A DNA stretch of 64,000 nucleotides from positions 8,164-72,163 of the forward strand of contig JAVVVD010000006.1 of assembly GCA_036652795.1 (NCBI GenBank), read 5' to 3'. The first letter of the stretch is position 1, and each line of letters begins with the position of its first letter. The DNA is from Clostridia bacterium. Its GTDB lineage: Bacteria > Bacillota > Clostridia > Christensenellales > CAG-138. Shown piece by piece: positions 7,832 through 46,209 of the stretch. Both the position numbers and the translations under genes were made by a program. Under the pieces are notes generated by a model, which searched no databases, had not been told where the DNA came from, and saw only the letters and a list, made by a program, of their open reading frames with translations.

Positions 7832-7845
7832 TGCGCAATAAAAAA

Positions 7846-7882: not shown

Positions 7883-7894
7883 TGCGTATAAAGT

Positions 7895-14492: not shown

Positions 14493-14762
14493 CCTTACAG
14501 TATGGCTTCTTTAGCGGCAAGCCATAACACATTACTTATAATATAGCGCAAAGCAAAATATAATGCCGGGAAACCGTGCTGCATTTGCACAGGCAGAGCG
14601 GCTGCACCAGACCCAACATAGATTATACTGCATTTTTTTGCTTTTACAACGACAAAATCTGTGAATAATCGATTAAAACTACCGCTAATCGACGCAAGCG
14701 TGTATGCTAAAATATAAGGGTTGATAGGTTATTTGAAGATAAGCATACTAATGATATGCGCT

Positions 14763-24510: not shown

Positions 24511-24540
24511 ATGCCTTGACCCTGAAAGGACTTGAAACAG

Positions 24541-25407
24541 ATGACGGTATCATTTGAAATCTGCACCAAAAGCGTTTCCATCGTTGTGGAGGATGCATTG
24601 CTTGGCACAAGCTCGGCTGTGGTTGCGTTGCCGCGTGGAATCATGCAGGATGGCTTCATTACGGATATAGATGGGGTATGCCGGCTGCTTTCACCCGAGA
24701 TAGCGCAATTGGGGGCGGCAAAGGTGCGCCAGTGTGAGTTTGTGCTGCCGGCATCCTTTGCGATAACACAGGAGGTAAGCCTGCCACGGGTAAAGAAAAG
24801 CAGAATACTTCCTCTGCTGCGTGGCCAGCTTGAGGGCGGCATAGCCGATATAGGCAGGTATGTTGTGGACTATATACCATTTTCAGACGATTTTGACACG
24901 TTGACACTGCTTGCAGTGCTGATGGAAAAAAAGCTTATAGGACAATACATCATGTTGGCCGAACGGCTTTCGCTTAAGTGCACGGGTATACAGCTGCGAT
25001 TTGCAAGGCTGCGGCGCATGATGATGCAAAATAAGGTGACGGATACCGCATTTGTAATCGCAGACATTATGCCGGGTGAGGCGGAGCTGAGCCTGTTTGA
25101 GGGTGGCAGCGTATTCGTGCGTTCCGTACGGATAGATGAGGCGGATAGCACACTGTCAGATTGGGGAATAGCCTTCGCTTCGGCAGGACCGGATATTACG
25201 CAGCAGGCGGCAATCGTGGCGGATGGGATAAACAGCCTGATCCAGTTTCAAGACAGCCGTAACCGTGATTTGCCTGTAAGCGCCATATATGCTACTGGGG
25301 ATACGGAGCGGTATAAGGAGCTGCTGAGCACATGCTCGCTGAGACTTGGCAGAAGCATAGGCCCACTAAATCAAAACGGCCAAGCTGTGGTGGAGGTCAT
25401 GCGATGA
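24541..25407 (+). CDS. pilM: PilM-like pilus assembly protein (actin-like fold)
   Basis: Position, size and absence of TM helices fit PilM, and it is followed by PilN/O-like bitopic proteins. The start could be the TTG at 24532. Called mainly from context. Confidence 0.6.
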   Translation: MTVSFEICTKSVSIVVEDALLGTSSAVVALPRGIMQDGFITDIDGVCRLLSPEIAQLGAAKVRQCEFVLPASFAITQEVSLPRVKKSRILPLLRGQLEGGIADIGRYVVDYIPFSDDFDTLTLLAVLMEKKLIGQYIMLAERLSLKCTGIQLRFARLRRMMMQNKVTDTAFVIADIMPGEAELSLFEGGSVFVRSVRIDEADSTLSDWGIAFASAGPDITQQAAIVADGINSLIQFQDSRNRDLPVSAIYATGDTERYKELLSTCSLRLGRSIGPLNQNGQAVVEVMR

Positions 25408-25982
25408 TAAAGCAGATTAGCAAGGATCTTGATATACTTTCCGCATACAGGACGCAGATAAAGGATAAGGAAAGAAAAACGGTGGTGCGGCGCGCGCTGA
25501 TAGGCGCCGTAGTGGCTGTATTGTTAATGGCGATGGGCGGCTTCTACATAATGATACAGACTCAAAAGCGTGCCGTTAGCAGCGAAATCGATAGTGTGCA
25601 AGCAGAGCTGAATTCACCGGAGGCGCTGGAGCGGGCGGAGCAGATACAGATATTAAACGACAGGTTGAGACGTCGCTTGGAATATAACGATATACTAAAA
25701 ACACACCTTACAACGCTTGGCGCCACATACCGTCCCACATCGGCCCTGTTTGCCGATATAGAGCGTGTATCGGTGGCACACAATGTGGAATGCACAGCGC
25801 TCACATATCTTGACGAGCGTGTTGTGCTGGAATGCAACAGCAAATCAGGTTCAGCGGCGGCTTTGTTTGCAAAAGCACTTGAGGACAAGCTTATGCAGGG
25901 CGTTTACTTTTATGGCTATTCGTGGATGAACGGAGTAGATCACTATGGATTCGCAGTACAGGGTATGCGGAGGGGGGAATAG
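25404..25982 (+). CDS. pilN: PilN-like bitopic pilus assembly protein
   Basis: ATGA overlap with the pilM stop, GGAGG upstream. Short cytoplasmic N-terminus, one TM helix, a coiled coil and a periplasmic-type domain. Confidence 0.55.
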   Translation: MIKQISKDLDILSAYRTQIKDKERKTVVRRALIGAVVAVLLMAMGGFYIMIQTQKRAVSSEIDSVQAELNSPEALERAEQIQILNDRLRRRLEYNDILKTHLTTLGATYRPTSALFADIERVSVAHNVECTALTYLDERVVLECNSKSGSAAALFAKALEDKLMQGVYFYGYSWMNGVDHYGFAVQGMRRGE

Positions 25983-25985
25983 CGC

Positions 25986-26582
25986 ATGAACGGTTTTACT
26001 AAACGCGAAAAGACGTTGCTTCTAATACTGCTTGTATTTGGTACGCTTGCGCTGTTTACAGCGTATGTGCTGGTACCGCAGATGGGCGAGCTAAAACAGA
26101 TGCGTATGGATCTGTTGGATGCGCAATACGAGTTTGATAAGCAACAGCTTGAGTTTGCAAATCAGCAGGCTGTACAGCAGCAGTTGGATCAGGCGGATGC
26201 CGAGGCTGTGGAGTTGTACGGCGAGTTGCATGGCAAAAAAACCTATGATACAGGGCTGATGCTATCCGATATGCTGGCAAGGCATTCGCTTGTGCCTATT
26301 AACCTTACAATAGGCGAACGCACGCGCTCGGCGCTGATGGACACGGTTGATGAAACCGGTAAGCCGGTTGAGGTGGATACGCAGTTTGCATATTGCCGCG
26401 AGGTAAGCCTGAGCTTTACCGGCCAGCGCTCCGATGCCGATGCGTTTACAGATGAGATAAGCGCGTTTGATACGCGTTATGTGTTGCACGGGCTCACGCT
26501 TACGCGCAGCGGCGAGAACACGGAATATACGATACAGCTCACCCTTTATGAGTTCGATGAGGCGGGCGCTGTAGAATTTTAG
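25986..26582 (+). CDS. pilO: PilO-like bitopic pilus assembly protein
   Basis: One N-terminal TM helix, a Gln-rich coiled coil and a C-terminal domain. Called mainly from context. Confidence 0.5.
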   Translation: MNGFTKREKTLLLILLVFGTLALFTAYVLVPQMGELKQMRMDLLDAQYEFDKQQLEFANQQAVQQQLDQADAEAVELYGELHGKKTYDTGLMLSDMLARHSLVPINLTIGERTRSALMDTVDETGKPVEVDTQFAYCREVSLSFTGQRSDADAFTDEISAFDTRYVLHGLTLTRSGENTEYTIQLTLYEFDEAGAVEF

Positions 26583-26591
26583 GAGATACGT

Positions 26592-28292
26592 ATGCAGCAA
26601 CGAAGGATAAAGATAGGCGATCTGCTCATACAAAATGGGCTGATAACGCCGGAGCAGCTTGAAGCGGCGCTGGAAAATCAAAAAGATGCCGATAATGATA
26701 AAAAAATAGGCGATATTGTAATTGAGCTTGGCTTTGTAAGCGAAGACGATGTATGCCGTATTTTGCACGAGAAGCTGTCGGTTCCGATAATCGATGTGCA
26801 GAATGTGCAGATATCGGCAGATGCCGTGAACCTAATACCCAGGGCGCTGGCCGAAAAACACTGTATGGTTCCTATCAGAATTGAAGGCGGGCTGTTGGTG
26901 TTGGCCATGGCCGACCCTGTGGATTATTATGTAATAGACGAGATGCAGCTGATTGCACGCAGGCAGGTGCGTCCAATGCTTTCCACACCAACACGCATAC
27001 GCGCTGCCATAGAGCGAGGATACAGGCAGATTGTGGATAGCTCTGTTATCGATAGCATTAACCGCTCTGCCCGCGTGCCTGATGAAAACGATGAAAACAC
27101 CGCGCGGATGGCAGCAATAAACGAGCGAACGGAAAATGCACCGGTGGTGCAGCTGGTAAATGCCATACTCAGACAAGCAAAAGCCATGCGCGCCAGCGAT
27201 ATACATGTGGAACCCGGCGCACAAACAGTTCAGGTGCGCTTCCGCGTGGACGGCGAGCTACTTACGGTTATGACGCTGCAACTATCGCTGTTTTCTTCTT
27301 TGATAACGAGGATAAAGATACTTGCCGGCATAGATATTGCGGAAAAACGTGTGCCGCAGGACGGACGATTTACTGCCAATGTGGATAACATGCCAATGCA
27401 GATGCGCGCGTCGACATTGCCAACCATATATGGCGAAAAGGTTGTGTTGCGCATATTCGGCGATAGCGCTATGCAGATACGCAGTACGCGTGAGCTTGGC
27501 ATGAGCGAGCATGAGCATGAACGCTTTGCCCGTATGTTAAGCGCACCAAGCGGTATAATCCTTGTGGCAGGCCCGACGGGCAGTGGCAAAACCACCACAT
27601 TGTATGCTGCGCTGTGCGAAATACTGCGGCCAGGCATAAACGTATCGAGCATAGAGGATCCGGTCGAAAAGGCAATTGCAGGCGTTAATCAGGTGCAGGT
27701 GAATCCCAAGGCAGGGCTAACGTTTGCATCTGGACTCAGAGCCATGCTCAGGCAGGACCCGGATATAATCATGATAGGCGAGATACGCGATAGTGAAACG
27801 GCCTCGATAGCAACGCGTGCGGCCATAACGGGGCATCTAGTGCTTTCAACCATACACACAAACGATGCTGCAAGCACGTTTCCGCGCCTTATTGACATGG
27901 GGGTTGAGCCGTATATGGTGGCGGCATCAATGGTTGGCGTGCTAAGCCAGCGGCTTGTGCGCTTACTTTGCCCGTATTGCAAGCGGGAATATACGTTAAA
28001 CGAACCTGTGCGCGGCCTTAATCAGGGCGAAAAGCTATTTCATGCGGTTGGGTGCGAGCACTGCAACGGCACGGGTTACTTTGGCCGTACCGCCATATAT
28101 GAGCAGATACTTGTGAGCCACGAAACACGCAAGCTTGTGGGTAGCTGTGCCACTACGGATATTATACAGGCGCAGGTAAAAAATGAAGCGGGCTATTCCT
28201 CCTTGCGCGACAACCTTATTGCGCTGCTACGGGCAGGCAAAACAACTATTGAGGAGCTTGATAGGCTAACGTATTCTATTGAGCTGGTGTAA
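26592..28292 (+). CDS. pilB: Type IV pilus assembly ATPase (GspE/PilB family) with N-terminal MshEN-type domain
   Basis: Walker A GPTGSGKTTT, Asp/His boxes, and a tetracysteine cluster (CPYC...CEHCNGTG). The N-terminus carries two 24-aa KIGDxhIxxGhh motifs. Confidence 0.95.
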   Translation: MQQRRIKIGDLLIQNGLITPEQLEAALENQKDADNDKKIGDIVIELGFVSEDDVCRILHEKLSVPIIDVQNVQISADAVNLIPRALAEKHCMVPIRIEGGLLVLAMADPVDYYVIDEMQLIARRQVRPMLSTPTRIRAAIERGYRQIVDSSVIDSINRSARVPDENDENTARMAAINERTENAPVVQLVNAILRQAKAMRASDIHVEPGAQTVQVRFRVDGELLTVMTLQLSLFSSLITRIKILAGIDIAEKRVPQDGRFTANVDNMPMQMRASTLPTIYGEKVVLRIFGDSAMQIRSTRELGMSEHEHERFARMLSAPSGIILVAGPTGSGKTTTLYAALCEILRPGINVSSIEDPVEKAIAGVNQVQVNPKAGLTFASGLRAMLRQDPDIIMIGEIRDSETASIATRAAITGHLVLSTIHTNDAASTFPRLIDMGVEPYMVAASMVGVLSQRLVRLLCPYCKREYTLNEPVRGLNQGEKLFHAVGCEHCNGTGYFGRTAIYEQILVSHETRKLVGSCATTDIIQAQVKNEAGYSSLRDNLIALLRAGKTTIEELDRLTYSIELV

Positions 28293-28862: not shown

Positions 28863-31800
28863 TTGAAGAAAAGGGATACAGGCTTTACATTGACGGAGCT
28901 GATAGTGACCATCGCTATAATCGCGGTGCTTGCTGGCGTCGCCATACCCAGTATCGCAGGGGCAATGAAGACGGCAAGGCTTGTGCGTTATGACGAACAT
29001 GCGCGCACGATATTCCTTGCGGCGCAAACCCGCCTGACCAACATGCACTACAGCGGTGAGCTGGAAAAAGTGAATATCGAGACTGAGACAAAACTGGTTA
29101 CTGCCGATAAGGTGGCGAATGTGCCGCAGAATGCGGATGTGCGCTACATGAGGATTGATTTGAACGATACTCTGCCAAATACGCAGCGGGATGCGCAGCT
29201 TGCGGATCTGCTTAAGTGGCAGCTTAACGATACATCGATGCAAAATGCCAGCGTATTGCTGGAGTACAGCGCCGTAACAGGGCGCGTATACGCCGTGCTT
29301 TACAGCGAGGAGGCAGAGGGCTTTAGATATGCCGATGAAGCAGGTGCGGGCTTCGTTAACGTATCCGTGCGTACGGAGACTGCGAAGCGCCGCGGTATGT
29401 TTGGCTATTATGGTGTGGATACGCTAAACGTGGGTGTGACTGATGCGGTGCTGGAGCTTGACGAAGTGAGCCTCGTGAATGCGGACAGGCTGTATCTGAC
29501 ATGGACGATTAAAAGCGTATCAGGTACGCTGCCAAACGACGCCAACGCAGAATACACCATTAAACTATATGACAAAAATCAGAAGGAATGCTACAGCTTT
29601 AGCGTAAATGGATCGCAAATAAACGCAAACAGCGTTGGTGCGCCGCTGCTTAACCTTTCAAATTATGACGTAACGGCGCAAACCAAGCGCGTAGATGGTA
29701 CAGCGCAGAATATGCAGCATTGCATATATAAAGAGGGCGCACGCTACTTCCTTGTGCTGGACGCAATGGATATTGGCGGCACATATGGCATAATAAAAAG
29801 ATATGCTGATATACCGGCTGGCAATATGTATGCCACGTTAAGCGTGGCAGCGGCAGGCGGCGCGCCAAGTGACCCAATAGTCACCGCCATGGAGCATACA
29901 CTATTTACAACCAAGGATAAAAGCGTAGATGGAGCGGAGCTTAAATTAAACAATAAACAATATGCAATAGCGTATCCGCGGCATCTATATAATGTGCGCT
30001 TTATGGATGCAAAAACGGACTATGTGCAGATAAGTGACGTGGATTTTGACGCCGCGGTAAAGGGAAGATATATAACTAACAACGGAGCAAGCCTAAGCGA
30101 AGGCCTGCTGCCTGTGCCAAGCTTTGGCGCTGCTACTAACGTAAAGTACAATGGCAAATACAGCGGGAAATACAACGGGATAGTGCATTCCATAATAGGT
30201 GCGCAGATACAGCGCATAGATGGATACCCTGCCGGATTATTTGGCGAGGTGGACAAACAGGGAAATGTAGTGGATCTTATTTTAAAGCGCGTCAGCGTTG
30301 TAGGCGTGCCGGTAGTCAGCAAACCAACCGGTGCCGTAGCTGGAATTAACAGGGGCACAATATCAGGCGTACAGGCGCTGGATATAAAGGTAACCGGGCT
30401 GGATTATGTTGGCGGGCTGGTAGGCTATGGCGAAATCATGAGCAACATAACGAATTGCTCCACCTCAATGACCCAGGACAGCGGTGCGCTTGTTTCAGGC
30501 AAAAGCTATGTGGGCGGTATAGTGGGCTATAATGTGGCGCAGAACAAGAGCAACGGAGCGCTAATTGGCCTTGTTAACAGGCTGACAGTTAAAGGCAGCG
30601 GGGATCATATAGGCGGCATAGTCGGATATATGAAGCCGGCGAATATTTCGTATAATGAAGACAATGTGAGTATAGCCGGGTGTAAAAATATGGGCAGCGT
30701 GAGCTGCACGGCAAGTGGTATGTCAAGAGTGGGCGGGATAACCGGAGAATGCCCTGACGGTATGCTGATAAGAAATTGCGAAAACTATGGTGATGTTAAC
30801 GGCGGAATGTATGCCGGCGGAATTGCCGGCCGCAATCTGGGCTGGGTATTGGACTGCATGGCGATGGGCGGCACTATAACATCAAGCAGTACAGGCGCAT
30901 GCATAGGCGGGATTACAGGAGTAAACAGTCTAATAGGAACAATAGAATACAAGTATATACAGCGCAATAGCGAGGGCTATCACGTGCTAGCCACAAATAT
31001 AAGAGCGGGCGGCAGCAACCAGTACGCGGGCGGAGTTACAGGCAAGAACGATGCGGATTCGATATTTATGACGGCGTTTAAATATTTTGACTTTGCAGGC
31101 ACTGCTACCCAGCTTGCTAATACCACAGGCGTTCAGCTTGGGGGGATAATAGGACGGCTGAGGGCCAATGAATTCATTTCAAATTGCACGTTAAGCGGCA
31201 TCGTATCGGGCGTTGACGGCTATACCGGCGGATTGGTTGGCTATAATGAAGGCAAGGTAGGCAATGTAACAATAGCTGGCCGCAAAAATGCACCACGAGT
31301 ATCGGGCGGCAGCAACGTGGGTGGTATCGCGGGCGGCTGCGGAAGTGGCGCGGCCATAACTGATGTGAAGGTAAACAACACGGATGGTGCGCTCAAGGCA
31401 ATGATAGTAACCGGAAGCGGAAACAATGTGGGTGGAATAACTGGAAGTGCGGCGAATGTAACAAAGCTGACGCTGAATAATATAGAAACATATGCATCCG
31501 TAAGCGGAAGCGGCACAAGGGTGGGCGCAATAGCGGGCAGCATCGTTGCAGGGAGGCTTAACTCTAAAGGGGCCGTGAGCATAAGCAAATGCCGCAACTA
31601 CGGCAGCGTTTATGGGCATGGCGTATCGTGCGGCGGTATAGCTGGCTTTATATCCAACAACGTAGGCAGCGCTGCGCCGTTGCTTATTGAAGATTGCCAT
31701 AACGGTGGACGCATACACAATACAGATGAACAAGTGGGCGGCATAATCGGCGGCAGCATAAATGCGATCGAGGTGTCTGGGTGCAGCAACATGAATAGCG

Positions 31801-33734
31801 GCGTCGTAACGGGTAATACAGATAGGATAGGCGGCATAATAGGGTTTGCTACAGGCTCGAATCAGGTTAAGATAACAAACTGCGAGTGCAATGGCAAAGT
31901 GGCCGGATTGAGTGCAGGGGGATCGAATCAAAGCGAGTTTGTTGCGGGTATAATAGGGTTTGTTGAAGGTGAAATAGGGACGAGTATAGCTGAGTGCACG
32001 CTAAGATCCACAGCAGATATATCGGCATCAAAATCGGTGGCGGGTATACTTGGCGGCAGCTTATTCAATAATGGGATGAGCATAACGCGCTGCGTCACAC
32101 AGACGGGCGCCTCGATTGTAGCGGAGCAGAATATTGCGGGCGGAATAGTAGCGTACGGCGGTAACAAAATTGCTATAACGGATTGCGTAAATAGCGCCAA
32201 TATCAGCGCTGCTAAAGCGGGCGCGGTTGGTGGTATCGCGGGGATTGTAGCAGATAACAGCAGCATTATTAACTGCAAAAATTATGGCTCCATCACAGCT
32301 GCAAGCGGTGTTGGCGGCATAGTTGGCGTAATAAGCCATCTGGCGTCAAATAACGGGACTGATGTGCGGGATTGCGCAAACTATGGCACGCTAAATGCTA
32401 TGGCGGACAATGCGGGCGGTATAGTGGGATGTATGGAAAGCAAAAAGGATAAAATTTCCGATTGCGTAAACTATGGCGCGCTTAAAATTAGCGGAAGCGG
32501 AAGCGTCGCGAGGTTTGGCGGCATAGTTGGGAAATCCTATGCAAGCACCATAAACGGCTGTGTGAATTTGGGCGCAATCGTCACGGCTGCCGATTCGAAT
32601 GCGGCAATCAAATATATAGGCGGAATTGTGGGCAATATGCCAATGGCGGCGGACAGCCTTGCTTCCTGCATAAATATAGCGCCAATCACAATAGGCGGCG
32701 TATCGGCAAGCTGTGTCGGTGGCGTAGTCGGCTCAAACGCAGGTATTGTTACGGGTTGCTCCGCGCTTATTACGGCCGAAACAACGCTTAGCGATGCGCT
32801 TAAGGCGGCAATTGCAGCAGCTGCACAGCTTGATGCGCAGTTATTTATTAAATGCCCGCCACAAAACGGCTTTGCAGTAGGTGCGGCTGAGATAAGTATT
32901 GCGCCGTATGCGGATTGCATAGGCGGCATTGCGGGTGAAAACAAGCTTGATGCGCAGATCATAAACGGGGTGGGTGCAAATGGCGTTGTTAGGAGCGAGC
33001 TCAATATTGCTACGGGAGATAGCGCTGATAAGCAAGGATGCATTGGCGGCATAGCAGGCTCAAACGCCGGCACCGTGCTTGGCTGCTATTATTCTGGAAC
33101 TATAAGCATAAATTCTATTGGCACGGCCTCCAGTGTGGGCGGCCTTGTTGGCACGGATGCAGAAGGAAGCAACAGTACAATAACCAATAGCTACTATATA
33201 GGCAACATGGCGGGCAGCGCACAAACGAGCGTATACCGAGGTGGAATACTCGGCGTTGCTGTAGATAATGGCGGAGTGATAATATCAGGTTGCGGATACA
33301 ACACAGCGGGCGTGCCGGAAACAACGGTGGACGGAGTAGCACAAAAGCGCATAATAGGCAATTATACAAACCAAATGCCGCCGTCAACGGGGGCTGTGGA
33401 GGGAAGCTTCACACAGGGGAGTGCTGTGGGCGCGATTATAGGCTATGTGCCAGGGGCCGCAATGATGCCGCCGCAGATTATTACCCCAACGGATATACCG
33501 CCGGAGATCACAACCCCAACGGATATACCGCCGGAGATCACAACACCAACGGATATACCGCCGGAGGTCACAACCCCATCGGATATACCGCCGGAGATCA
33601 CAACCCCATCGGATATACCGCCGGAGGTCACAACCCCATCGGATGTGCTGCTGGAGAAGCGAGAAATCTTTGCGAATATAGCGATGCAAAGCATTAAAGA
33701 TGGTATACGTGGTGCGGTAAGGAGAACGGCATGA
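28863..33734 (+). CDS. Giant modular pilin-like protein: prepilin N-terminus + about 28 GLUG-type repeats + Pro/Thr tandem repeat (1623 aa)
   Basis: TTG start 8 nt after AAGGGGA. MKKRDTG|FTLTELIVTIAIIAVLAGVAIPS has Gly-1, Phe+1 and Glu+5. Residues about 505-1490 carry repeated hxxCxNxG...xGG[IL]xG units. The C-terminus is (TTP[TS]DIPPE[IV]) x about 5.5. Confidence 0.85.
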   Translation: MKKRDTGFTLTELIVTIAIIAVLAGVAIPSIAGAMKTARLVRYDEHARTIFLAAQTRLTNMHYSGELEKVNIETETKLVTADKVANVPQNADVRYMRIDLNDTLPNTQRDAQLADLLKWQLNDTSMQNASVLLEYSAVTGRVYAVLYSEEAEGFRYADEAGAGFVNVSVRTETAKRRGMFGYYGVDTLNVGVTDAVLELDEVSLVNADRLYLTWTIKSVSGTLPNDANAEYTIKLYDKNQKECYSFSVNGSQINANSVGAPLLNLSNYDVTAQTKRVDGTAQNMQHCIYKEGARYFLVLDAMDIGGTYGIIKRYADIPAGNMYATLSVAAAGGAPSDPIVTAMEHTLFTTKDKSVDGAELKLNNKQYAIAYPRHLYNVRFMDAKTDYVQISDVDFDAAVKGRYITNNGASLSEGLLPVPSFGAATNVKYNGKYSGKYNGIVHSIIGAQIQRIDGYPAGLFGEVDKQGNVVDLILKRVSVVGVPVVSKPTGAVAGINRGTISGVQALDIKVTGLDYVGGLVGYGEIMSNITNCSTSMTQDSGALVSGKSYVGGIVGYNVAQNKSNGALIGLVNRLTVKGSGDHIGGIVGYMKPANISYNEDNVSIAGCKNMGSVSCTASGMSRVGGITGECPDGMLIRNCENYGDVNGGMYAGGIAGRNLGWVLDCMAMGGTITSSSTGACIGGITGVNSLIGTIEYKYIQRNSEGYHVLATNIRAGGSNQYAGGVTGKNDADSIFMTAFKYFDFAGTATQLANTTGVQLGGIIGRLRANEFISNCTLSGIVSGVDGYTGGLVGYNEGKVGNVTIAGRKNAPRVSGGSNVGGIAGGCGSGAAITDVKVNNTDGALKAMIVTGSGNNVGGITGSAANVTKLTLNNIETYASVSGSGTRVGAIAGSIVAGRLNSKGAVSISKCRNYGSVYGHGVSCGGIAGFISNNVGSAAPLLIEDCHNGGRIHNTDEQVGGIIGGSINAIEVSGCSNMNSGVVTGNTDRIGGIIGFATGSNQVKITNCECNGKVAGLSAGGSNQSEFVAGIIGFVEGEIGTSIAECTLRSTADISASKSVAGILGGSLFNNGMSITRCVTQTGASIVAEQNIAGGIVAYGGNKIAITDCVNSANISAAKAGAVGGIAGIVADNSSIINCKNYGSITAASGVGGIVGVISHLASNNGTDVRDCANYGTLNAMADNAGGIVGCMESKKDKISDCVNYGALKISGSGSVARFGGIVGKSYASTINGCVNLGAIVTAADSNAAIKYIGGIVGNMPMAADSLASCINIAPITIGGVSASCVGGVVGSNAGIVTGCSALITAETTLSDALKAAIAAAAQLDAQLFIKCPPQNGFAVGAAEISIAPYADCIGGIAGENKLDAQIINGVGANGVVRSELNIATGDSADKQGCIGGIAGSNAGTVLGCYYSGTISINSIGTASSVGGLVGTDAEGSNSTITNSYYIGNMAGSAQTSVYRGGILGVAVDNGGVIISGCGYNTAGVPETTVDGVAQKRIIGNYTNQMPPSTGAVEGSFTQGSAVGAIIGYVPGAAMMPPQIITPTDIPPEITTPTDIPPEITTPTDIPPEVTTPSDIPPEITTPSDIPPEVTTPSDVLLEKREIFANIAMQSIKDGIRGAVRRTA
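33481..33647 (+). repeat. 30-bp in-frame tandem repeat, about 5.5 copies (caaccccaacggatataccgccggagatca)
   Basis: Near-identical units at 33481, 33511, 33541, 33571 and 33601, plus a partial unit at 33631. Differences are a few single bases (a/t, a/g). Confidence 0.95.
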
Positions 33735-34198
33735 CGACAGCTTATAAATACAGGAGATGGGTGGCACTAAATAGTGCAAAGCAGGGGCAGCGCGGTGTTG
33801 CGATGGTGATAGTGCTGTGCGCGTTTGCACTGATATTGGCATTGGGTACTGGCGCGCTGGTTGCGGCCAATGCTTCGTATGCAACTACGATCAACAGCGT
33901 GTCGCAGCAGCAGGCATACCTTACGGCCTACTCATTTTGCGAGACATTGCGTACCGAACTTGAAAACAACGATAGTGCGATATGCGCAAAGCTTAAAGCC
34001 ATACCTGATGGCGGGCAAACGGATATGACTGGTGCTACCACGGATATGGGTAGCGCGACGGGTATTACAGAGCGCAGCGGCAATCGCCTAAGCGTTACGG
34101 TGGATGGCGAATATAATGGGATGCACAGCAAGATGCAAATGCAGTTGATATTGCAGAATGGGAAATGGGTATTCAATACCTATTTGCCGGTGGCATAA
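33731..34198 (+). CDS. PilX_N/GspK-like minor pilin (non-canonical leader)
   Basis: ATGA overlap with the giant pilin stop. The N-terminus QRGVAMVIVLCAFALILALGTGALVAA resembles the PilX-N/GspK hydrophobic segment and lacks a G|F-T-L-x-E site. Confidence 0.5.
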   Translation: MTTAYKYRRWVALNSAKQGQRGVAMVIVLCAFALILALGTGALVAANASYATTINSVSQQQAYLTAYSFCETLRTELENNDSAICAKLKAIPDGGQTDMTGATTDMGSATGITERSGNRLSVTVDGEYNGMHSKMQMQLILQNGKWVFNTYLPVA

Positions 34199-34206
34199 GG
34201 GTAGAT

Positions 34207-34524
34207 ATGAAAAGAGCGCAGATGAAAAAATACATATGCAGCGGCAACGCAGGAATGACGTTGGTGGAGGTAATAATCTCGCTGGCGCTGATGGTGCTGC
34301 TATTTTCAGTGTTCGCTGTGTTTATACAGGGCGCTACCGCGATGAATAAGCGCACAATACTTGCGGATACGGCGCTTAGCAAGGCAAATAATGCCGTGCT
34401 TATGGATATGGCTGGCGAGCCGGACACGGTCACGATAACCATTGACGGGATGGATTATGAGATTAATGTAACTAGATATGCTGGCACAGGGGACGATGTG
34501 ACGCTTTGGAGGTTTGAACCATGA
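34207..34524 (+). CDS. Minor pilin/pseudopilin (prepilin-type N-terminal domain)
   Basis: MKRAQMKKYICSGNAG|MTLVEVIISLALMVLLF with Glu+5. The ATG at 34207 follows AAGGGTAG. Confidence 0.7.
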   Translation: MKRAQMKKYICSGNAGMTLVEVIISLALMVLLFSVFAVFIQGATAMNKRTILADTALSKANNAVLMDMAGEPDTVTITIDGMDYEINVTRYAGTGDDVTLWRFEP

Positions 34525-35015
34525 TGGGCGTGCATAAAAAGCAGAATTCCCGCATTAACGGCTTTACACTTGTGGAGCTGATAGTGACGCTTGCAATACT
34601 GACAATACTCACCGTCGGGCTTGCGGCGATAACCCCGGCTGCGCTCAATACGGCGCGCCTTTCGATTACACTATCGGAGGATAGGATGATAGCGCAGACC
34701 ATAATGGAGCAGCTGGCTCGCGAGATAGCGTGCGCGCAGGATGGCGATGTGGTGATAGGCACGGATGGCGCAACAATAGAATTTACGAGTAAATTATATG
34801 GCAGGATAAGCGTAAGCACATCTGGAGGAAGGGTGCATGTGATGGGCGGCGAAAATGAAATGGGACTAGAGGATAAGGCATATATGCAGCGCACCGCAAG
34901 CGCAACATTCACAAGCCTTAGCGGTGGATTTGTCAATATAAAGGTGAAGATAGCACGCGCGCAAGAGCAAAGCTATGAAACGGAGCGGCTGATAAAGCTT
35001 ATCAACACCAAATAA
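34521..35015 (+). CDS. Minor pilin/pseudopilin (prepilin-type N-terminal domain)
   Basis: MMGVHKKQNSRING|FTLVELIVTLAILTILT with Glu+5. ATGA overlap with the preceding gene. Confidence 0.8.
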   Translation: MMGVHKKQNSRINGFTLVELIVTLAILTILTVGLAAITPAALNTARLSITLSEDRMIAQTIMEQLAREIACAQDGDVVIGTDGATIEFTSKLYGRISVSTSGGRVHVMGGENEMGLEDKAYMQRTASATFTSLSGGFVNIKVKIARAQEQSYETERLIKLINTK

Positions 35016-35038
35016 TCAAGTCGGCACATAATGGAAGT

Positions 35039-35812
35039 CTATAGTATAAGCGAAAGATAGGCTGAGATGATCGCTTCGCCAAAGCAAGCGGACAGCATCA
35101 AGCCAACACATAGAAACGGCCCAAAGGCTATAGCAGTTTTGCCATTGGCTTTTTTTGTTATAAGCAGTATGGCCCCCGCTATGCCGCCTAGCAACGCAGC
35201 CATGAGGAAAGCGGTTAAGGTGAGCTTCCAGCCAAGGATAAGCCCTGCGGCGGCCATAAGCTTAACATCGCCAAAGCCGAACCCATGCGTAAAAATGGCG
35301 ATTACAAGCATTGGAATACTGACGCAAACGCTGCCGATTAGCCTACTCGCTATTGTAAGCTGTGGCGGTGGGCAAAGGTATGATAGCACAGCTAACGCTG
35401 CTATGGTGATAACCAGCGCATCTGGTATGGTATGGGTATGTAGGTCGATGAAGGATATGGCTATAAGTGTACAGAAGAATAACCCCATAACAGGTGCGAG
35501 CGGCGTAAATCCATAAACAATGGCCGCCACAACAAATGCGGCGCTGCCAAGCAGTTCTACAAGCGGATATAGCGGCGATATGCGCGTGCCGCAGGTTCGG
35601 CATTTGCCGCGCAGAAAGATATAGCTTATAAGCGGCACAAGCTCATATGCTTTTAACTGTGTGTTGCATTTGACGCAGTGAGATCGGCCACGCGATATGC
35701 TTTCATTGCGAGGGATACGCCATATACACACATTTAAAAAGCTGCCTATAGCAAGTCCGAAAAGCGCCATAAACAGATAATAAGGCCATAGATACGGCGC
35801 GAATAGGGGCAT
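35039..35812 (-). CDS. pilD: Prepilin peptidase (A24 family)
   Basis: N-terminal CxxC...CxxC (HCVKCNT...CRTCGT), multiple TM helices and a GFGDVKL aspartyl-protease motif. AAAGGAG SD upstream. Confidence 0.9.
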   Translation of the reverse strand: MPLFAPYLWPYYLFMALFGLAIGSFLNVCIWRIPRNESISRGRSHCVKCNTQLKAYELVPLISYIFLRGKCRTCGTRISPLYPLVELLGSAAFVVAAIVYGFTPLAPVMGLFFCTLIAISFIDLHTHTIPDALVITIAALAVLSYLCPPPQLTIASRLIGSVCVSIPMLVIAIFTHGFGFGDVKLMAAAGLILGWKLTLTAFLMAALLGGIAGAILLITKKANGKTAIAFGPFLCVGLMLSACFGEAIISAYLSLIL

Positions 35813-38717: not shown

Positions 38718-39083
38718 ATGGGTATTTTTGTGATTCGCGAACATGATTCGGGCCTTTCGTTTGTCCTAAAAGCAGGCAACGGGGAGGTAATCGGCACTTC
38801 TGAAATCTATTCGAGCGAGGCGGCCTGCAAAGGCGGCATAGAGAGCGTAAAGAAGAATGCGCCCATAGCCAAAATAGAGGATCAAACAGCAGAGGGCTAT
38901 GAAACCGTGGCGAACCCAAAATTCGAAATATACAAGGACAAGGCTGATGAATTCCGCTTCCGTCTTAAGGCAAGAAATGGCGAACCTATCCTTGCATCCG
39001 AAGGGTATAAGGCAAAAGCAAGCTGCAAAAACGGCGTGGAGAGCGTGATAAACAACGCTGATTCAAAGGTAGAGAAAGCATAA
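38718..39083 (+). CDS. YegP family protein (tandem DUF1508)
   Basis: Two repeats of F.L+A.NGE.I..SE.Y.S...C..GIESV.+NA. Strong SD (GGAAGGAG). Confidence 0.8.
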   Translation: MGIFVIREHDSGLSFVLKAGNGEVIGTSEIYSSEAACKGGIESVKKNAPIAKIEDQTAEGYETVANPKFEIYKDKADEFRFRLKARNGEPILASEGYKAKASCKNGVESVINNADSKVEKA

Positions 39084-39202: not shown

Positions 39203-40426
39203 TTATTGTGCCGCAGTGCGCTTGCGGCGTTTGTGGCGAATAATGATGGCGGTTATGAGCGCCGCTGCCCCAATCATCACGACAGCCGCGATTATGCCAA
39301 GCTTGTATACGGATGGTATGGAGTGAGTGGCAAACAGATGGTAACGAAGTGCGTCCAACCCGGATATATCCAGATAATCATTAAAGCTTACTAGCCGGGT
39401 CCTGTAGGCCTTTATGTTATCGGCTGCAAGCTCAACCATACGCACACCGCGAAGGTCAGGGTCGTTATAGCTGCAAAATGTGCTGCCTGGAACTGCCACA
39501 AGGTCTATGCCGCGATGTTCTATTATGAACGTGTTGGTGTGGTCATGCCCGAAAAAAGCTGCGAACACATCGCCTTGCGCTTCCCAAGCTGCGAATTGTC
39601 CGTTATTTACGGCAGGCGGGCATGGTGCTTCGTTTATAGCGCCTGAAATAATAGCGGTAGATTCAGGTGAAAAATATTTTGCCTCACCTACGCCCACGCG
39701 CGATACTGCGCCGGGTGTGTCCTTTTGAACCTCATTGAGCGTATCATATATTTCGGGCACGATTATATGTTGAAATGCTATGGCCGGTATGGGCTTACCA
39801 TACTGCGCTTGCAGCGATTCGGCGGTGGCGGAGCACCACGCTATTTGCTCTTTGGAAACACAGGCATAATTTCCGTCAGCATCATAGTCAAGCGAATCAA
39901 TAAGATAAAGATTAACAAGCGGCGTTTTACCGTCCGCATCATATACAAGCAGATTATATGTGCCTGCACCGGGCATGCATTCCCCCTCGTCGACGGCAAG
40001 GCAGTTTGGATAGTCACGATATAGCTCGATTAGCCGTTCACGCGACAAACCCGATTCTGCATCGTGATTGCCAAGCACAACGGCAAACGGTATGTTACGC
40101 TGCACCATTGGCGTAACTATGTTGCGTATTGCATCGGCGGCATTTTTATCTGCGTCACCCAGCTTCATGCAGGGCCGCCAGGCCTCAAGCTGATCGCCTA
40201 GCAGTATTACCATATCTGGCGCTTCGTCATCAAGAACTGCATTGAAAGCGGATAGAAAAAATTTTGATGTAAAGCGTATATCCTGCACGTCTGATACAAG
40301 CATTATACGGAAACCGCCGTCATCCGTGAAACGGAGTTGGCTATTTTGTGCTGCCATCGCACTGTGTATCGGAAGCAGCATAATTACGGCGAGAGCACAG
40401 GCAAGTATTTTTTTTACATTTTTCAT
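39203..40426 (-). CDS. Exported calcineurin-like metallophosphoesterase with C-terminal membrane anchor
   Basis: Signal peptide (LPIHSAMA), MLVSDVQD, LLGDQLE, LGNHD and FGHDHTN motifs. The C-terminus has a TM helix plus an RHKRRKR tail. Confidence 0.75.
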   Translation of the reverse strand: MKNVKKILACALAVIMLLPIHSAMAAQNSQLRFTDDGGFRIMLVSDVQDIRFTSKFFLSAFNAVLDDEAPDMVILLGDQLEAWRPCMKLGDADKNAADAIRNIVTPMVQRNIPFAVVLGNHDAESGLSRERLIELYRDYPNCLAVDEGECMPGAGTYNLLVYDADGKTPLVNLYLIDSLDYDADGNYACVSKEQIAWCSATAESLQAQYGKPIPAIAFQHIIVPEIYDTLNEVQKDTPGAVSRVGVGEAKYFSPESTAIISGAINEAPCPPAVNNGQFAAWEAQGDVFAAFFGHDHTNTFIIEHRGIDLVAVPGSTFCSYNDPDLRGVRMVELAADNIKAYRTRLVSFNDYLDISGLDALRYHLFATHSIPSVYKLGIIAAVVMIGAAALITAIIIRHKRRKRTAAQ

Positions 40427-40724
40427 ATAAATACCATCCCAATTAATTATTGCTTTTGCAACTGAGCATAACCGGCGAAATCATTTGTTGACATGATATC
40501 GGCATCAAATGCGTATCCTATCCATACATATATTAGCGTATTTTTCATATGAGTGCAAACTTTGCGCAAAAGCATGGAACTAAATTGACCAGCCAATGCA
40601 TGATGATAAAAATTATGCAGCATGTGCACTTTGATTAGCGAATCACAATATAAAACATCGAATAGTGCATAGTTTAGCTGTTGCCTGAATATCCTAAGCT
40701 GGAATAAGCTTTGGAGGTATATGC

Positions 40725-41564
40725 GTGAAAAAGACACTTGTGCTATTGATAGTAACAATTTTACTATGCACATCATATCTAACATCTGCTTTGGCATATG
40801 GCGTACAGGGCCAAATACAGATGCAAAATAATCATGACGACGATTATGACGACGATTATGACGACGATCATGACGACGATTATGATGACGACCATGACGA
40901 CGATTATGACGACGACCATGACGACGATTATGATGATGATCATGACGGCGACCATGGAGAAAAGACGCCCAAGCCCACACGTTCGCCTAAGCCCACACGC
41001 TCGCCTAAGCCCACATGTACACCCAAGCCTACATGTTCGCCTAGACCTACGTGCACATCAAGACCTACGTGCACACCAAAACCCACGTGCACACCAAGGC
41101 CTACGTGCACACCAAAACCCACGTGCACACCAAAACCTACGTGTACACCAAAACCTACACCAACTCCGGAAGTAACGCCGCCACCACCGCCGACGCCCAC
41201 ACCAACTCCGGAAGTAACGCCGCCACCACCGCCGACGCCTACACCAACTCCGGAAGTAACGCCGCCGCCACCGCCGACGCCTACACCAACTCCGGAAGTA
41301 ACGCCGCCACCGCCGCCGACGCCCACACCAACTCCGGAAGTAACGCCGCCACCACCGCCGACGCCTACACCAACGCCGCCGCCACCGCCGCCGACATTTA
41401 CACCAAAGCCGTCTCCGCGGCCGGATCCAACAGAAAAACCGGAAATACCTGGAACGCCGCAAACAGGAGATATAATGCCTACTATGCTGCTTGGTGGTCT
41501 TAGCGCAATAAGCATGGCGGCAACGATTATAAGCTATGTAAGCTATAGACGTAAAAAAGACTGA
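40725..41564 (+). CDS. Repeat-only, probably sortase-anchored surface protein (HDDD/YDDD tract, KPTCTP x10, [14 protein letters not shown] x5)
   Basis: GTG start 7 nt after GGAGG. Signal peptide ...TSALA|YG. C-terminal TPQTG, then a hydrophobic stretch and RRKKD, which is the layout of a sorting signal. Confidence 0.75.
40833..40952 (+). repeat. 12/24-bp tandem repeat encoding (H/Y)DDD x10
   Basis: Units catgacgacgat / tatgacgacgat are repeated with minor third-position changes. Confidence 0.9.
40971..41150 (+). repeat. 18-bp tandem repeat x10 encoding (K/R)PT(R/C)(S/T)P
   Basis: aagcccacacgttcgcct ... aaacctacgtgtacacca. The first two units encode Arg and the last eight encode Cys at position 4. 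Confidence 0.9.
41157..41366 (+). repeat. 42-bp tandem repeat x5 encoding [14 protein letters not shown]
   Basis: acaccaactccggaagtaacgccgccaccaccgccgacgcc(c/t), five near-identical copies. Confidence 0.95.
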
Positions 41565-41670
41565 CAGCCATAGCCAATGCAGGCTGAGATAGATGATGCA
41601 CAGGGGTGTCGGGGCTTGAAAATAACGACACCTCCTTGTGCTTTGCTTTAGCTAATTTGTGTTTGCGCAT

Positions 41671-41716
41671 AAAGGTTTGCCGCTAAACTTAAGTTTACTG
41701 CAGCAAACCTTTTGTA
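41671..41716 (+). terminator. Long interrupted hairpin terminator downstream of the repeat protein gene
   Basis: aaaggtttgc ... taaactt/aagttta ... gcaaaccttt, followed by tgt. Confidence 0.5.
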
Positions 41717-42075
41717 GGCCTTATGATTGATTTTAAATTCATGGATTGCTGGAGATTATCGGGGGATACAGAGCCAATTAATTATATCGCAAAAAACATT
41801 AGCCTTATGGCATTCCGGGCTATTGTGGTGGTGATGCTGGCGTTATATGGCCGCGATACAGTGCTGATACCAGCTTTTATCTATGCGTTTGGTAGACCGA
41901 TATGCTGTGGAGGGAAGTAATTTGAAGCTTGAGTAGTTATGAACTCCGTATTAACAATAATGAAACACTACCATAAGCATGATATATATGGCGCCACAGA
42001 TGCTATAATGTCTGAGCGCGGATGAAGTGAAGTGTAAAAAGTACGCGTTTAAAACAAAAAAATTGGAGGTTGCTT

Positions 42076-42783
42076 ATGAAGAAAACATGCATTGCGATGC
42101 TCCTGGTCTGTGGTATGTTGATGACTGCCTGTAACGCAGCAGTGCCGTCCGGTGCACAGACGGGGACGGATATACTCGTGCCAAACGGAACAGCCCAGCC
42201 AAAGGTATCGTCTACGCCGACTGACGTATTGCCTACGCCGACGGACGTATCTACGGAGCCAATACCGGATGAGGTGGAGCAAAAGCTTAATGCAATGATG
42301 CCTGCGCTGGATTCAGTTATGCGCGCGATGGGCGAACAGACGGAGTATGCCCCAAAGGATCAGAATTTCTTTTGGTCCACACTGTATCTTATGGGTGCGA
42401 ACTGGTCTAAGGTTAATGCGCTGATAGAGTTAAAGGACGGGAAGATTCAAGTGCCGCACAAGGTGATGCAGGAGTTTGCGACTGGCGCATTCCTTGATTA
42501 CGGCGATCTTTTGCCGCTCCCTTCTTCTATGGAAGGCTCAATTAAGTATGATGAAGGCATGGATAAGTACGTGCTTTCTGCTTCAGATGCAGGGGATGCA
42601 TACGCGATGCTGGGCGAGCATACGCTCAACGCGGATGGAAGTATAACGCTTAGCGCGAGCCTGCTTGATTGGAATGATACGACAATCGGCACCTACACAT
42701 TTGAGTTAAAGGCTAATCCGTATGTCGATGGCATTACGGAACCTATATTCTATTATAGCATAGCATCTGCAAAGGCAGAATGA
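42076..42783 (+). CDS. Hypothetical lipoprotein
   Basis: GGAGG lies 6 nt before the ATG at 42076. MKKTCIAMLLVCGMLMTAC lipobox, then a Pro/Thr linker. Confidence 0.65.
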   Translation: MKKTCIAMLLVCGMLMTACNAAVPSGAQTGTDILVPNGTAQPKVSSTPTDVLPTPTDVSTEPIPDEVEQKLNAMMPALDSVMRAMGEQTEYAPKDQNFFWSTLYLMGANWSKVNALIELKDGKIQVPHKVMQEFATGAFLDYGDLLPLPSSMEGSIKYDEGMDKYVLSASDAGDAYAMLGEHTLNADGSITLSASLLDWNDTTIGTYTFELKANPYVDGITEPIFYYSIASAKAE

Positions 42784-44778: not shown

Positions 44779-45528
44779 TTATACCATACAGAGCAATATT
44801 TCCACAAGCTCTGCGTACTCAAGTACGTCGGCCTTTACGAGAACATATTCCGTATCGGAGGTTTGCCACAGCGCCCAAATCTGTGTATCGCCGGCGTCTG
44901 TGCGCACATCTTTCATGCATACTTGACCTATTTCGATTATTGGCGCATCACAGGGGAATTTGGTATAGCTGCACTTGCCGATTGTCTCGCCATTACCGTA
45001 GAATGCCGCACAGCTATCGAGGTTTGGCACGCCTATGGTGTACAGACGGCTGCTGCTCAAGGAAGGAAATAACTCGACCATCGTCTGCTCGTCCGTTGTT
45101 CCGGCGGTAGCGTTACTCGTTGAATAGCTTCCCAAGTCTTCGCCACTTTCTGCTAAGCTATCATCCACAATGCCGCAACCACTTGGTGCAGGCTGCTTTG
45201 GATCTGGCACTGCACAGGCGTCCGCTACTGGTGTGGGTTGATTTGGCGCTGGCGCCGCATAGGAGGCTGACTGTGGTTGGCTTGCGGGCGCGGGGGCAGA
45301 CTCAGAGCGGGCAAACTTATCGTTTTGGCCATGGGTGGTCATCATAACGCCAACGCCTATAAGCAGCACAAATGCGGCAGCAGCACTTAAGGTGCGTGTA
45401 AGCGACCATGTGTGTTTTGTGCGTTTAATTTGCTCGGCGGCAATGGCGGCGTGCAGCGCATCAAAATCCACCGCTGCATTTTCCACATCGGCAATATTTT
45501 GCATAAGCTCGTCAAATTTGTCAGCCAT
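44779..45528 (-). CDS. Putative anti-sigma factor (single-pass membrane protein)
   Basis: Overlaps the sigma gene stop by 8 nt. Short cytoplasmic N-terminus, one TM helix, a Pro/Ala-rich linker and an extracytoplasmic domain. Confidence 0.5.
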   Translation of the reverse strand: MADKFDELMQNIADVENAAVDFDALHAAIAAEQIKRTKHTWSLTRTLSAAAAFVLLIGVGVMMTTHGQNDKFARSESAPAPASQPQSASYAAPAPNQPTPVADACAVPDPKQPAPSGCGIVDDSLAESGEDLGSYSTSNATAGTTDEQTMVELFPSLSSSRLYTIGVPNLDSCAAFYGNGETIGKCSYTKFPCDAPIIEIGQVCMKDVRTDAGDTQIWALWQTSDTEYVLVKADVLEYAELVEILLCMV

Positions 45529-46036
45529 TGCTCACACCTTCTTTCAACAGGACGCAGAGCTTTTCTTTGGCTCGAAACATCCTGGATTTAATCGTCCCTT
45601 CGGTGGTGCCTGTAAGCTCCGCTATTTCCACATAGCCAAGGCCGGAAAAATAATGGAGTATTACAGTTTCACGGTACACATCTGGTAATGTGTCTATAGC
45701 GCTGCGCACTATCAGGCGCTTTTCAGCAGATAGCGCCGCGGGTTCAGGCAGCACGGCTTCGTCCGTGGCCACCATATCTATATCCTCATCCATGAGCAGC
45801 TCGCGCGAAAGCTTGCGCTTGCCGTCCAAACAAAGGTTTACCGTAACGCGATACAACCATCCCCTAAGCTGCGGGTCGGTCATAGTCTCCAGTTTTTTGA
45901 TGTGCTTGAGCACCCGTAAAAATACATTTTGCGAAGCGTCCATAGCGTCCTGAGCGGACTTGGTCACGCCGTACGCCGTCCAATACACCAGCCGCGAAAA
46001 ATCAGTATATATGGACTCGAAATCCCGAGTGGGCAT
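45521..46036 (-). CDS. ECF-type RNA polymerase sigma-70 family factor
   Basis: Region 2 (VYWTAYGVTKSAQDAMDASQNVFLRV) and region 4 HTH (GLGYVEIAELTGTTEGTIKSRMFRAKEKL). GAGGAAGG lies 9 nt before the ATG at 46036. Confidence 0.85.
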   Translation of the reverse strand: MPTRDFESIYTDFSRLVYWTAYGVTKSAQDAMDASQNVFLRVLKHIKKLETMTDPQLRGWLYRVTVNLCLDGKRKLSRELLMDEDIDMVATDEAVLPEPAALSAEKRLIVRSAIDTLPDVYRETVILHYFSGLGYVEIAELTGTTEGTIKSRMFRAKEKLCVLLKEGVSNG

Positions 46037-46209
46037 ATCCGTGCGCCTTCCTCTCATCAGTAATAATACGCAGTAAGCGCATATAAGGTTGCATAGATTA
46101 TATCACATACACAAAAATACACAAATACAGTTGCCATCCGTGTGGAATGAGATTAGAATGGATAAGTTATAAAGATTGAGACATTGTCTTTTATTTTAAG
46201 GGGGGCATT

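Follow-up and report, generated by a model that had tools for sequence, protein, structure and literature searches.

A repeat-only orphan surface protein with a predicted sortase anchor in an uncultured Clostridia bacterium

The stretch of DNA analysed here (the window: 64,000 nucleotides, positions 8,164 to 72,163 of contig JAVVVD010000006.1, assembly GCA_036652795.1, from a Clostridia bacterium) holds a gene at 40725..41564 on the forward strand whose 279-aa product consists of repeat modules between a signal peptide and a sorting signal. Our analysis indicates that it is a genuine, lineage-restricted orphan gene of an uncultured gut-type Clostridia bacterium, and that the product, unusual in composition and ordinary in design, is best classed as a repeat-only orphan form of a sortase-anchored surface protein. 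Each of its modules has ordinary or recurrent counterparts elsewhere, and the combination as a whole protein was found nowhere else. We favour a reading in which the protein is an unfolded stalk anchored by sortase and carrying a cation-binding tip with a net charge of -30, which would act as a surface polyelectrolyte; our confidence in this reading is evenly balanced.

The open reading frame (ORF) has a GTG start and stands in the ORF listing of the window exactly as an earlier examination of the letters alone (the sequence-only reading) had described it. A ribosome-binding site, GGAGG, lies on the same strand at 40713-40717, 7 nt 5' of the GTG. The first 24 residues (40725..40796) read as a Sec-type signal peptide, with a basic n-region containing KK, a hydrophobic core and an A-x-A cleavage site (ALA, followed by Y). 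The Cys of this signal peptide is preceded by L-L, which is no lipobox, and a lipoprotein was rejected for this reason. The mature protein then begins with 12 residues of unique sequence (aa 25-36, 40797..40832) that have no database match.

Three modules follow, each encoded by its own tandem array, and all three arrays of 12/24, 18 and 42 bp that had been claimed earlier were recovered by Tandem Repeats Finder (TRF). The first is a tract of ten (H/Y)DDD units (aa 37-76, 40833..40952) from a 12-bp array with 24-bp superunits encoding HDDDYDDD (TRF array 40831-40956, scores 168/187); the tract is present as described, except that the tenth unit reads HDGD and is followed by HGE. After a junction, HGEKTP (aa 77-82, 40953..40970), come ten units of (K/R)PT(R/C)(S/T)P (aa 83-142, 40971..41150) from an 18-bp array at 40966-41158 (scores 100/179) that has a higher-order period of 54 bp. 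Units 1-2 carry Arg (CGT/CGC) and units 3-10 (41007-41150) carry Cys (three TGT and five TGC), so that eight Cys stand at an exact spacing of six residues. The description of this module as ten units with Cys in the last eight was right except for one unit, which reads RPTCTS and whose Ser is Pro in another metagenome-assembled genome (MAG), GCA_036649195.1. The third module, a 14-aa polyproline unit in five copies with K or T as first residue (aa 143-212, 41151..41360), comes from a 42-bp array (41154-41378) for which TRF gives 5.4 copies with 95% matches and a score of 415. The five copies encode the same peptide with codons that vary at CCA/CCG and CCC/CCT; the count of five stands, but the first copy starts with K and a degenerate 13-residue sixth unit comes after the fifth. 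The remaining 31 residues before the sorting signal (aa 213-243, 41361..41453) are a degenerate Pro-rich spacer. Only one other array in the window scores at least 80, at 33468-33644.

The evidence for surface anchoring lies at the C-terminus. Here the pentapeptide TPQTG (aa 244-248, 41454..41468) is followed by Asp and a 25-residue hydrophobic segment (aa 249-274), by RRKKD (aa 275-279) and by the stop codon (41469..41564). The NCBIfam model TIGR01167 (LPXTG_anchor) matches aa 245-279 with 17.2 bits against a curated cut-off of 15.9 (E 0.0058), which agrees with the tripartite sorting signal proposed in the sequence-only reading, and cleavage is expected between T247 and G248. Sortase substrates are defined in PMC4155245 by an xPxTG motif 17-45 residues from the C-terminus, a hydrophobic segment and no fewer than two basic residues in a row, and the tail of the 279-aa protein has all three, with 31 residues after the Gly of TPQTG. 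The motif had been set apart as non-LPXTG; Leu is indeed absent, but the motif is not exotic, as xPQTG is the normal clostridial form. C. difficile has a single sortase, SrtB, which cuts (S/P)PXTG peptides, SPQTG among them, between T and G but leaves LPETG uncut, and the substrates predicted for it have SPKTGD or PPKTGD near the end, then a hydrophobic segment and lastly a basic tail (PMC4155245). PPQTGD and APETGD also occur frequently in the tails of the Pro/Thr-linker proteins that our searches retrieved, and because of these tails and the SrtB motif data we count TPQTG as the expected clostridial form. Taken strictly, Thr at the first position leaves the protein outside the (S/P)PXTG class, and TPQTGD differs from SPQTGD solely by Thr for Ser, a conservative difference.

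The SrtB substrates of C. difficile (such as CD2831 and CD3392) are a close comparison for the overall design: they come from the same class, Clostridia, and share with the 279-aa protein a signal peptide and a Leu-less xPxTG motif with Asp after it, then a hydrophobic stretch and basic residues at the end. They differ in carrying folded passengers (collagen-binding domains, hydrolases, a nucleotidase), whereas the 279-aa protein has none. The genome itself points to a spore-forming, Gram-positive-type anaerobic Bacillota as host, because the window and its flanks encode a large (Bacillus-type) bacterial signal recognition particle (SRP) RNA, an LCP-family wall-polymer ligase, a polysaccharide deacetylase, a type IV pilus cluster and genes of sporulation and germination (SpoIIR, YpeB and a SleB-like hydrolase). 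Sortase anchoring is common in such organisms. The case for anchoring of the 279-aa protein by a sortase is good, except that the enzyme itself was not found in the window or within 10 kb of its ends. The signal peptide and sorting signal also led us to reject a spore-coat or exosporium protein, and a sortase-polymerised pilin was set aside since there are no Ig-like CnaB/CnaA domains and no class C sortase nearby.

After both cleavages the anchored chain would have 223 residues, 34% of them Pro, 20% Thr, 13.5% Asp and 3.6% Cys. The earlier claim that the product has no globular domain is borne out by the analysis of domains and structure: Pfam gives 0 families on the 279-aa protein, and the AlphaFold2 (AF2) single-sequence model has a predicted local distance difference test (pLDDT) score of 59.9 and a predicted template modelling (pTM) score of 0.21, with helices only at aa 2-35 and aa 247-278, which are those of the signal peptide and the anchor. 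An unfolded chain is consistent with the lack of a Pfam family and the poor AF2 model, and from its composition we infer that the mature chain does not fold. Charge is segregated along the chain, with about -30 in the distal tip (aa 25-79, 55 residues), about +13 in the KPT/Cys segment (aa 80-142, 63 residues) and about -4 in the polyproline part (aa 143-249).

These features suggest how the protein could work. A housekeeping sortase would cut between T247 and G248 and join the 223-residue mature chain to peptidoglycan, and the roughly 105 Pro/Thr-rich residues nearest the anchor would form an extended, wall-spanning stalk. A Pro-rich segment beside the sorting signal is the classical wall-spanning region of Gram-positive surface proteins. 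Further out, the basic KPTCTP segment would present eight thiols at fixed spacing, and the His/Tyr/Asp tip would capture Ca2+ and Mg2+ with its Asp runs, and Zn, Ni or Fe with its His, Tyr and Asp residues together. On grounds of physical chemistry, 29 Asp interspersed with His and Tyr will bind divalent cations, and as a biological role such capture would lead to metal buffering at the surface or to cation-bridged adhesion. The three modules are slippage-prone tandem DNA repeats, and strain-to-strain variation in their length would be expected for this reason.

Acidic repeats on anchored proteins have precedents. The staphylococcal Ser-Asp repeat proteins (Sdr/Clf family) and acidic-stalk LPXTG proteins such as E. 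faecalis PrgC are sortase-anchored and carry slippage-prone acidic repeats whose length varies among strains. In Sdr/Clf the acidic repeat is the stalk under a folded ligand-binding A domain, while in the 279-aa protein the acidic tract is the distal tip and there is no folded domain; the SD repeats of the former and the (H/Y)DDD units of the latter show no sequence similarity, and neither Pfam nor AF2 gives an A domain. Similar in composition to the tip are RcnA, ZrgA, ZnuA-type loops and the eukaryotic histidine-rich Ca-binding protein, which likewise have alternating His and acidic residues in unstructured segments. RcnA and ZrgA loops sit within folded transporters or binding proteins, and the likeness is one of composition only: the NCBIfam scores (RcnA, E 0.0014, 17.9 bits against a cut-off of 195; ZrgA, E 0.67, 9.5 bits against 185) come from the low-complexity loop only.

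A tip of this kind could instead bind a mineral, plant-fibre or host-matrix ligand, in which case the protein would be an adhesin with the remainder of the chain as its stalk. A distal functional end on a Pro-rich stalk is the standard layout of sortase-anchored adhesins, and poly-Asp binds calcium minerals. We nevertheless regard an adhesin as unlikely, given that the protein has no folded binding domain and no similarity to any adhesin family and that the neighbourhood gives no pointer to a substrate.

The arrangement of the Cys residues deserves separate consideration. A polyproline-II (PPII) helix has 3 residues per turn and a rise of about 3.1 Å per residue, so that a KPTCTP segment in this form would have all of its Cys on a single face, spaced by about 19 Å and with Lys/Arg in between. 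Rod-like thiols six residues apart therefore would not chelate a single ion within one chain, and if the segment is rod-like the thiols more likely have an interchain than an intrachain role, acting between neighbouring chains as metal or disulfide bridges when the cell meets an oxidant. The Cys-Pro hinge of IgG3 and the small proline-rich (SPRR) proteins of the cornified envelope are Pro-rich repeats in which regularly spaced Cys cross-link parallel chains; they are eukaryotic, unrelated in sequence and found in oxidising compartments, whereas the 279-aa protein would stand on the surface of an anaerobe.

This geometry leads to a different account of the whole protein, as a redox-responsive, cross-linkable stalk in which the eight thiols form interchain disulfides on exposure to oxygen and either stiffen the surface or serve as a sacrificial antioxidant. 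The exact six-residue spacing of the Cys would fit such a role, as would a PPII geometry, which brings residue i+6 to the same face as residue i and has K/R at i-3. The host appears to be a strict anaerobe that tolerates Cys in exported proteins: the exported metallophosphoesterase encoded next to the repeat gene has 7 Cys in its mature part, so exported Cys is not forbidden in this organism, and Firmicutes that are anaerobic keep Cys out of their exported proteins less strictly than the aerobic ones (PMC2823432). Against this account, AF2 gives a low-confidence extended hairpin at aa 98-128 and no PPII rod, and no thiol-disulfide oxidoreductase was identified among the ORFs annotated near the gene. 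A redox-responsive stalk is thus improbable in our estimate. More speculative still is a wall-anchored, metallothionein-like or redox-active rod of a new type, in which eight thiolates about 19 Å apart, each with Lys/Arg beside it on the same PPII face, are combined with a metal-collecting His/Tyr/Asp tip. On the surface of a strict anaerobe, thiolates and tip together could bind soft metals, serve as nuclei for metal sulfides or hand on reducing equivalents. We consider this a long shot; if it were true, the sporadic KPTCTP ladders in other metagenomes would reflect convergent selection and not chance. A metallothionein in the proper sense was rejected. Metallothioneins have Cys-x-Cys or Cys-Cys clusters and about 20-30% Cys, and the 279-aa protein is an exported, Pro-rich chain whose eight Cys make up 3.6% of the mature part at six-residue spacing, with no dense Cys clusters.

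Searches for relatives returned no homologue in the collections covered, whether with the full length, the Cys segment, the sorting signal or aa 1-145, or against the PDB, where matches were of low complexity only. The full-length search gave 37 weak matches of at most 53 bits, all of them TPTPEVTP-type linkers on unrelated domains. An exhaustive phmmer search with aa 1-145 against 1.84 billion representatives gave 512 matches at E<1e-3, the best of which were Cys-free KPTxTP linkers such as PKPTNTPKPTATP, some with KPTRTP units. Over 60-66 residues (aa 80-145) the identity to linkers in hundreds of proteins reaches 55-70%, with P0040, P0041 and P0046 as the best. An exact look-up of the 279-aa product and of a 237-aa variant described below, with M or V as first residue, found neither in a collection of 15 billion proteins, and we found no paper on the assembly and run accessions. 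These results agree with the view in the sequence-only reading that the protein belongs to no described family.

The middle module is a Cys-substituted form of the very common KPTxTP linker. The KPTxTP and TPTPEV linkers of exported clostridial proteins are likewise tandem Pro/Thr-rich hexapeptides, but they join folded domains and have A, N, K, R or T at the variable position, where the 279-aa protein has Cys in eight consecutive units; it consists of linkers throughout, with no folded domains to connect. At least 7 Cys at a period of six residues in a Pro-rich context occurred in 2 of 187 retrieved proteins, P0038 and P0069, which are unrelated to each other and belong to no family. P0038 (74 aa) has a double-glycine leader (ending QVSGG) followed by (PKPxCx)7 and resembles a precursor of a bacteriocin or of a ribosomally synthesised and post-translationally modified peptide (RiPP); P0069 (130 aa) is a protein secreted by a signal peptide with (PxPVCx)8. 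A RiPP precursor was rejected for the 279-aa protein because of its Sec signal and its anchor, which set it apart from P0038 with its GG leader.

A scan of 241 million metagenome records for the DNA pattern found the Cys-bearing KPTCTP type in nine contigs, where the KPTCTP stretches serve as linkers in unrelated exported proteins. Two of these, in contigs L020 (ORF at about 9153-9232) and L022 (ORF at about 7693-7892), are near-identical proteins with an ice-binding-like domain (NF045625, E 2.3e-27, below the cut-off) that differ by 40 residues of Cys-bearing linker, so that the copy number of a Cys/PT linker varies there too. Contig L025 (ORF at about 909-940) encodes a 127-aa protein with an N-terminal hydrophobic signal, a ladder of (S/T)PKPTCTP with about eight Cys and, at the C-terminus, a hydrophobic stretch whose last residue is K; this is the layout of a ladder plus C-terminal anchor in an unrelated sequence. 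A signal peptide, an H/D/E-rich tract and a Pro-rich linker follow one another in P0054, P0055 and P0098 too, though without homology.

The codons indicate how the Cys ladder may have arisen. The Arg units (CGT/CGC) and the Cys units (TGT/TGC) are one C>T transition apart and have the rest of the unit in common, and the Cys units show synonymous differences (AAA/AAG, AGA/AGG, CCC/CCT/CCA, ACA/ACG and TGT/TGC) with no Cys lost. A single C>T change in a KPTR(S/T)P linker of the ordinary kind, and then amplification of one unit or of three units (54 bp), is thus the probable source of the ladder.

Such an origin raises the question of whether the gene has any specific role. One alternative is a low-complexity orphan, young in evolutionary terms and neutral in essence: slippage would have lengthened three linker-type repeats that lie between its signal peptide and its sorting signal, and the protein may be what is left of a surface protein after loss of a globular passenger. 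It may still be made and anchored, with a His/Asp tract and a Cys ladder that have no specific role. This would account for searches that return linkers and no homologue, for a gene confined to one species-level MAG group, for the unstable copy number, for the single transition that separates the Cys units from the flanking Arg units, and for KPTCTP stretches that occur sporadically as linkers in unrelated proteins with varying copy number (L020 against L022). It fits less well with three regular modules whose segregated charges (-30/+13/-4) are more ordered than random linker drift, or with an ORF that stays intact and in frame across strains. Synonymous divergence with the peptide kept (TGT together with TGC; five identical 14-aa units) also speaks against it, although this is weak evidence. 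We therefore treat a neutral orphan as possible but doubtful, and the unusual chemistry of the protein, that of its acidic His/Tyr tip and of its thiol ladder, could be adaptive or not.

Whether the gene itself is real could be judged from other copies of the locus. Assembly GCA_036655635.1 is 99.99% identical to the window over 21 kb and encodes the 279-aa product unchanged. In GCA_036649195.1 (L001) the flanks are 99.83-99.89% identical and the product has 237 aa, with two polyproline units against five and all eight Cys kept, as a result of an in-frame 126-bp deletion together with one Ser-to-Pro change. The same locus is interrupted by a run of N across the repeats in GCA_036651855.1, and three Logan short-read contigs with this locus end inside the arrays. 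The locus is also contained in the runs SRR25820366-68. The neighbouring phosphoesterase is identical in sequence in several assemblies, whose MAGs NCBI labels 'Clostridia bacterium'. The ORF is thus reproducible among assemblies, and its repeat copy numbers are not trustworthy because of the two units against five, the N run and the contigs that end inside the arrays.

The sequence-only reading had itself raised the doubt that the frame is an assembly artefact, and two independent full assemblies that keep the sense frame intact despite a length difference of 126 bp speak against it. A related suspicion is that the strand is wrong and the antisense ORF is the real gene. Gene callers chose antisense ORFs of 191 aa and 106 aa in GCA_036655635.1 and GCA_036651855.1, two of the three NCBI MAGs, and the corresponding coordinates are 40940-41515 on the reverse strand of the window, 8912-9487 in L002 and 2124-2440 in L013. 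Short-read assemblies break or gap in the arrays, all frames are open across the repeats, and differences between units, which fall mainly at third codon positions, fit sense and antisense alike: the antisense ORF at 40940-41515 shares the wobble positions of the sense frame, and the counts of synonymous and nonsynonymous differences (85/58 against 80/58) do not separate the two frames. The codon-position pattern was dropped as strand evidence for this reason. We chose the sense strand because the ribosome-binding site, the signal peptide and the LPXTG-anchor segment, whose domain scores above its cut-off, all lie in unique sequence and in the sense frame only, whereas the antisense ATG at 41515 has no ribosome-binding site and its product is a Gly/Val repeat without terminal features. 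An artefact or a wrong strand is accordingly very improbable. A further antisense ORF at 40450-40797 (-), called in one Logan contig, has no Pfam match and was treated as spurious.

Several observations weigh against the reading of the protein as an anchored, cation-binding polyelectrolyte, in addition to the codon counts that fit either strand. The gene is known here from assembled sequence. No orthologue was found in any other species and thus no evolutionary evidence of constraint, and the keeping of eight Cys is statistically indistinguishable from recent amplification. On the side of anchoring, the first position of the motif is Thr, compared with the Ser/Pro assayed for C. difficile SrtB; no TLxTC-type sortase signature occurs in the six frames of the 64-kb window, and no Sortase Pfam family was found among the called genes 10 kb beyond either window end. 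Nor did a sortase turn up around the gene of a PPQTGD protein in another organism. On the side of function, cation binding is a biological role proposed for the tip from its composition, and Lys/Arg on the same PPII face as each Cys argues against a ladder that simply chelates cations. Finally, the adjacent phosphoesterase has relatives at 32-34% identity in three other MAGs (Ruminococcaceae bacterium, uncultured Clostridia bacterium and Clostridia bacterium from goat omasum), found by a scan of genome contigs in a collection from which the species itself is absent, and none of the three has a comparable repeat-protein neighbour.

If the polyelectrolyte reading is true, the gene encodes a minimal Gram-positive surface protein whose whole passenger is a polyelectrolyte, with a basic ladder of thiols between an acidic metal-binding tip and a polyproline spacer. 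Firmicutes as a phylum generally disfavour exported Cys, and the protein would also be a natural example of thiols set at regular intervals on the surface of one of them. As it stands the protein is a curiosity confined to one uncultured species, and its interest would grow if it were shown to bind metals or to form redox cross-links. The locus shows in any case how repeat-only genes escape databases: the product is unrecorded, antisense calls replace it in two of three MAGs and assemblies break in the arrays.

The sequence 3' of the gene contains a structure that resembles a transcription terminator. A terminator-like hairpin, GCACAGGGGUGUCG...CGACACCUCCUUGUGC, then UUUGCUUU, lies at 41598..41649 (+) by RNA folding, a second hairpin 3' of the stop codon lies at 41671-41715, and the fold of 41560-41730 has an energy of -55.7 kcal/mol (z -2.7). 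The hairpin at 41598..41649 was not flagged by a simple terminator consensus scan, and the promoter and terminator scans were at background level. The 5' region has no Rfam match and hence no cyclic di-GMP or metal riboswitch.

The metallophosphoesterase lies at 39203-40426 (-) and is transcribed divergently from the repeat gene. It has a signal-like N-terminus and a C-terminal membrane segment, matches Pfam Metallophos (E 8.7e-9) and is named 'MAG: metallophosphoesterase [Clostridia bacterium]' by NCBI. Adjacency to an exported metallophosphoesterase had been singled out in the sequence-only reading; Pfam confirms the neighbour, but the pairing is not conserved in relatives, and a functional link between the two genes is not supported. 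The 298-bp divergent intergenic region contains no inverted repeat or operator. Just past the metallophosphoesterase, at 38718-39083 (+), is a 121-aa protein with two DUF1508 domains (E 2.9e-41).

The next gene downstream of the repeat gene, at 42070-42783 (+), encodes a putative lipoprotein of no family, with a signal ending in LMTAC; a 21-bp tandem repeat within it (42205-42251) encodes a Pro/Thr-rich segment of the PTDV type. An ECF-type (extracytoplasmic function) sigma factor of 178 aa (Sigma70_r2/r4_2) and a 249-aa ORF without a family that it overlaps by a few bases occupy 44779-46057 (-), 3 kb downstream of the repeat gene, and are likely a sigma/anti-sigma pair, the 249-aa ORF having a central hydrophobic segment.

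Further features of the window lie on the other side of the gene. Only one Rfam family exceeds its gathering score in the window, that of the SRP RNA (RF01854, 8581-8847 (-), 212.7 bits), and a search of the window for tRNAs was negative. Two P-type ATPases are encoded at 10090-12582 (+) and 19348-21972 (-), about 20-30 kb from the repeat gene; one is of the heavy-metal type with two HMA domains and one of the Ca/cation type with Cation_ATPase_N and Cation_ATPase_C. The LCP (LytR-CpsA-Psr) protein adjoins a second Metallophos-family protein at 13242-15854 (-), which brings the total of Metallophos proteins in the window to two. Type IV pilus genes extend over 23311-28292 and 33731-35812 and include a T2SSF/PilC-like protein (23311-24510), a T2SSE/PilB-like ATPase (26592-28292), an N_methyl pilin (34521-35015) and an A24 prepilin peptidase (35039-35812). 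Between these two parts of the cluster lies a giant pilin-like ORF of 1623 aa (28863-33734 (+); N_methyl, E 1.3e-6, with a weak GLUG motif), at whose end the 30-bp array at 33468-33644 (TRF score 284) encodes six copies of PPEITTPTDI.

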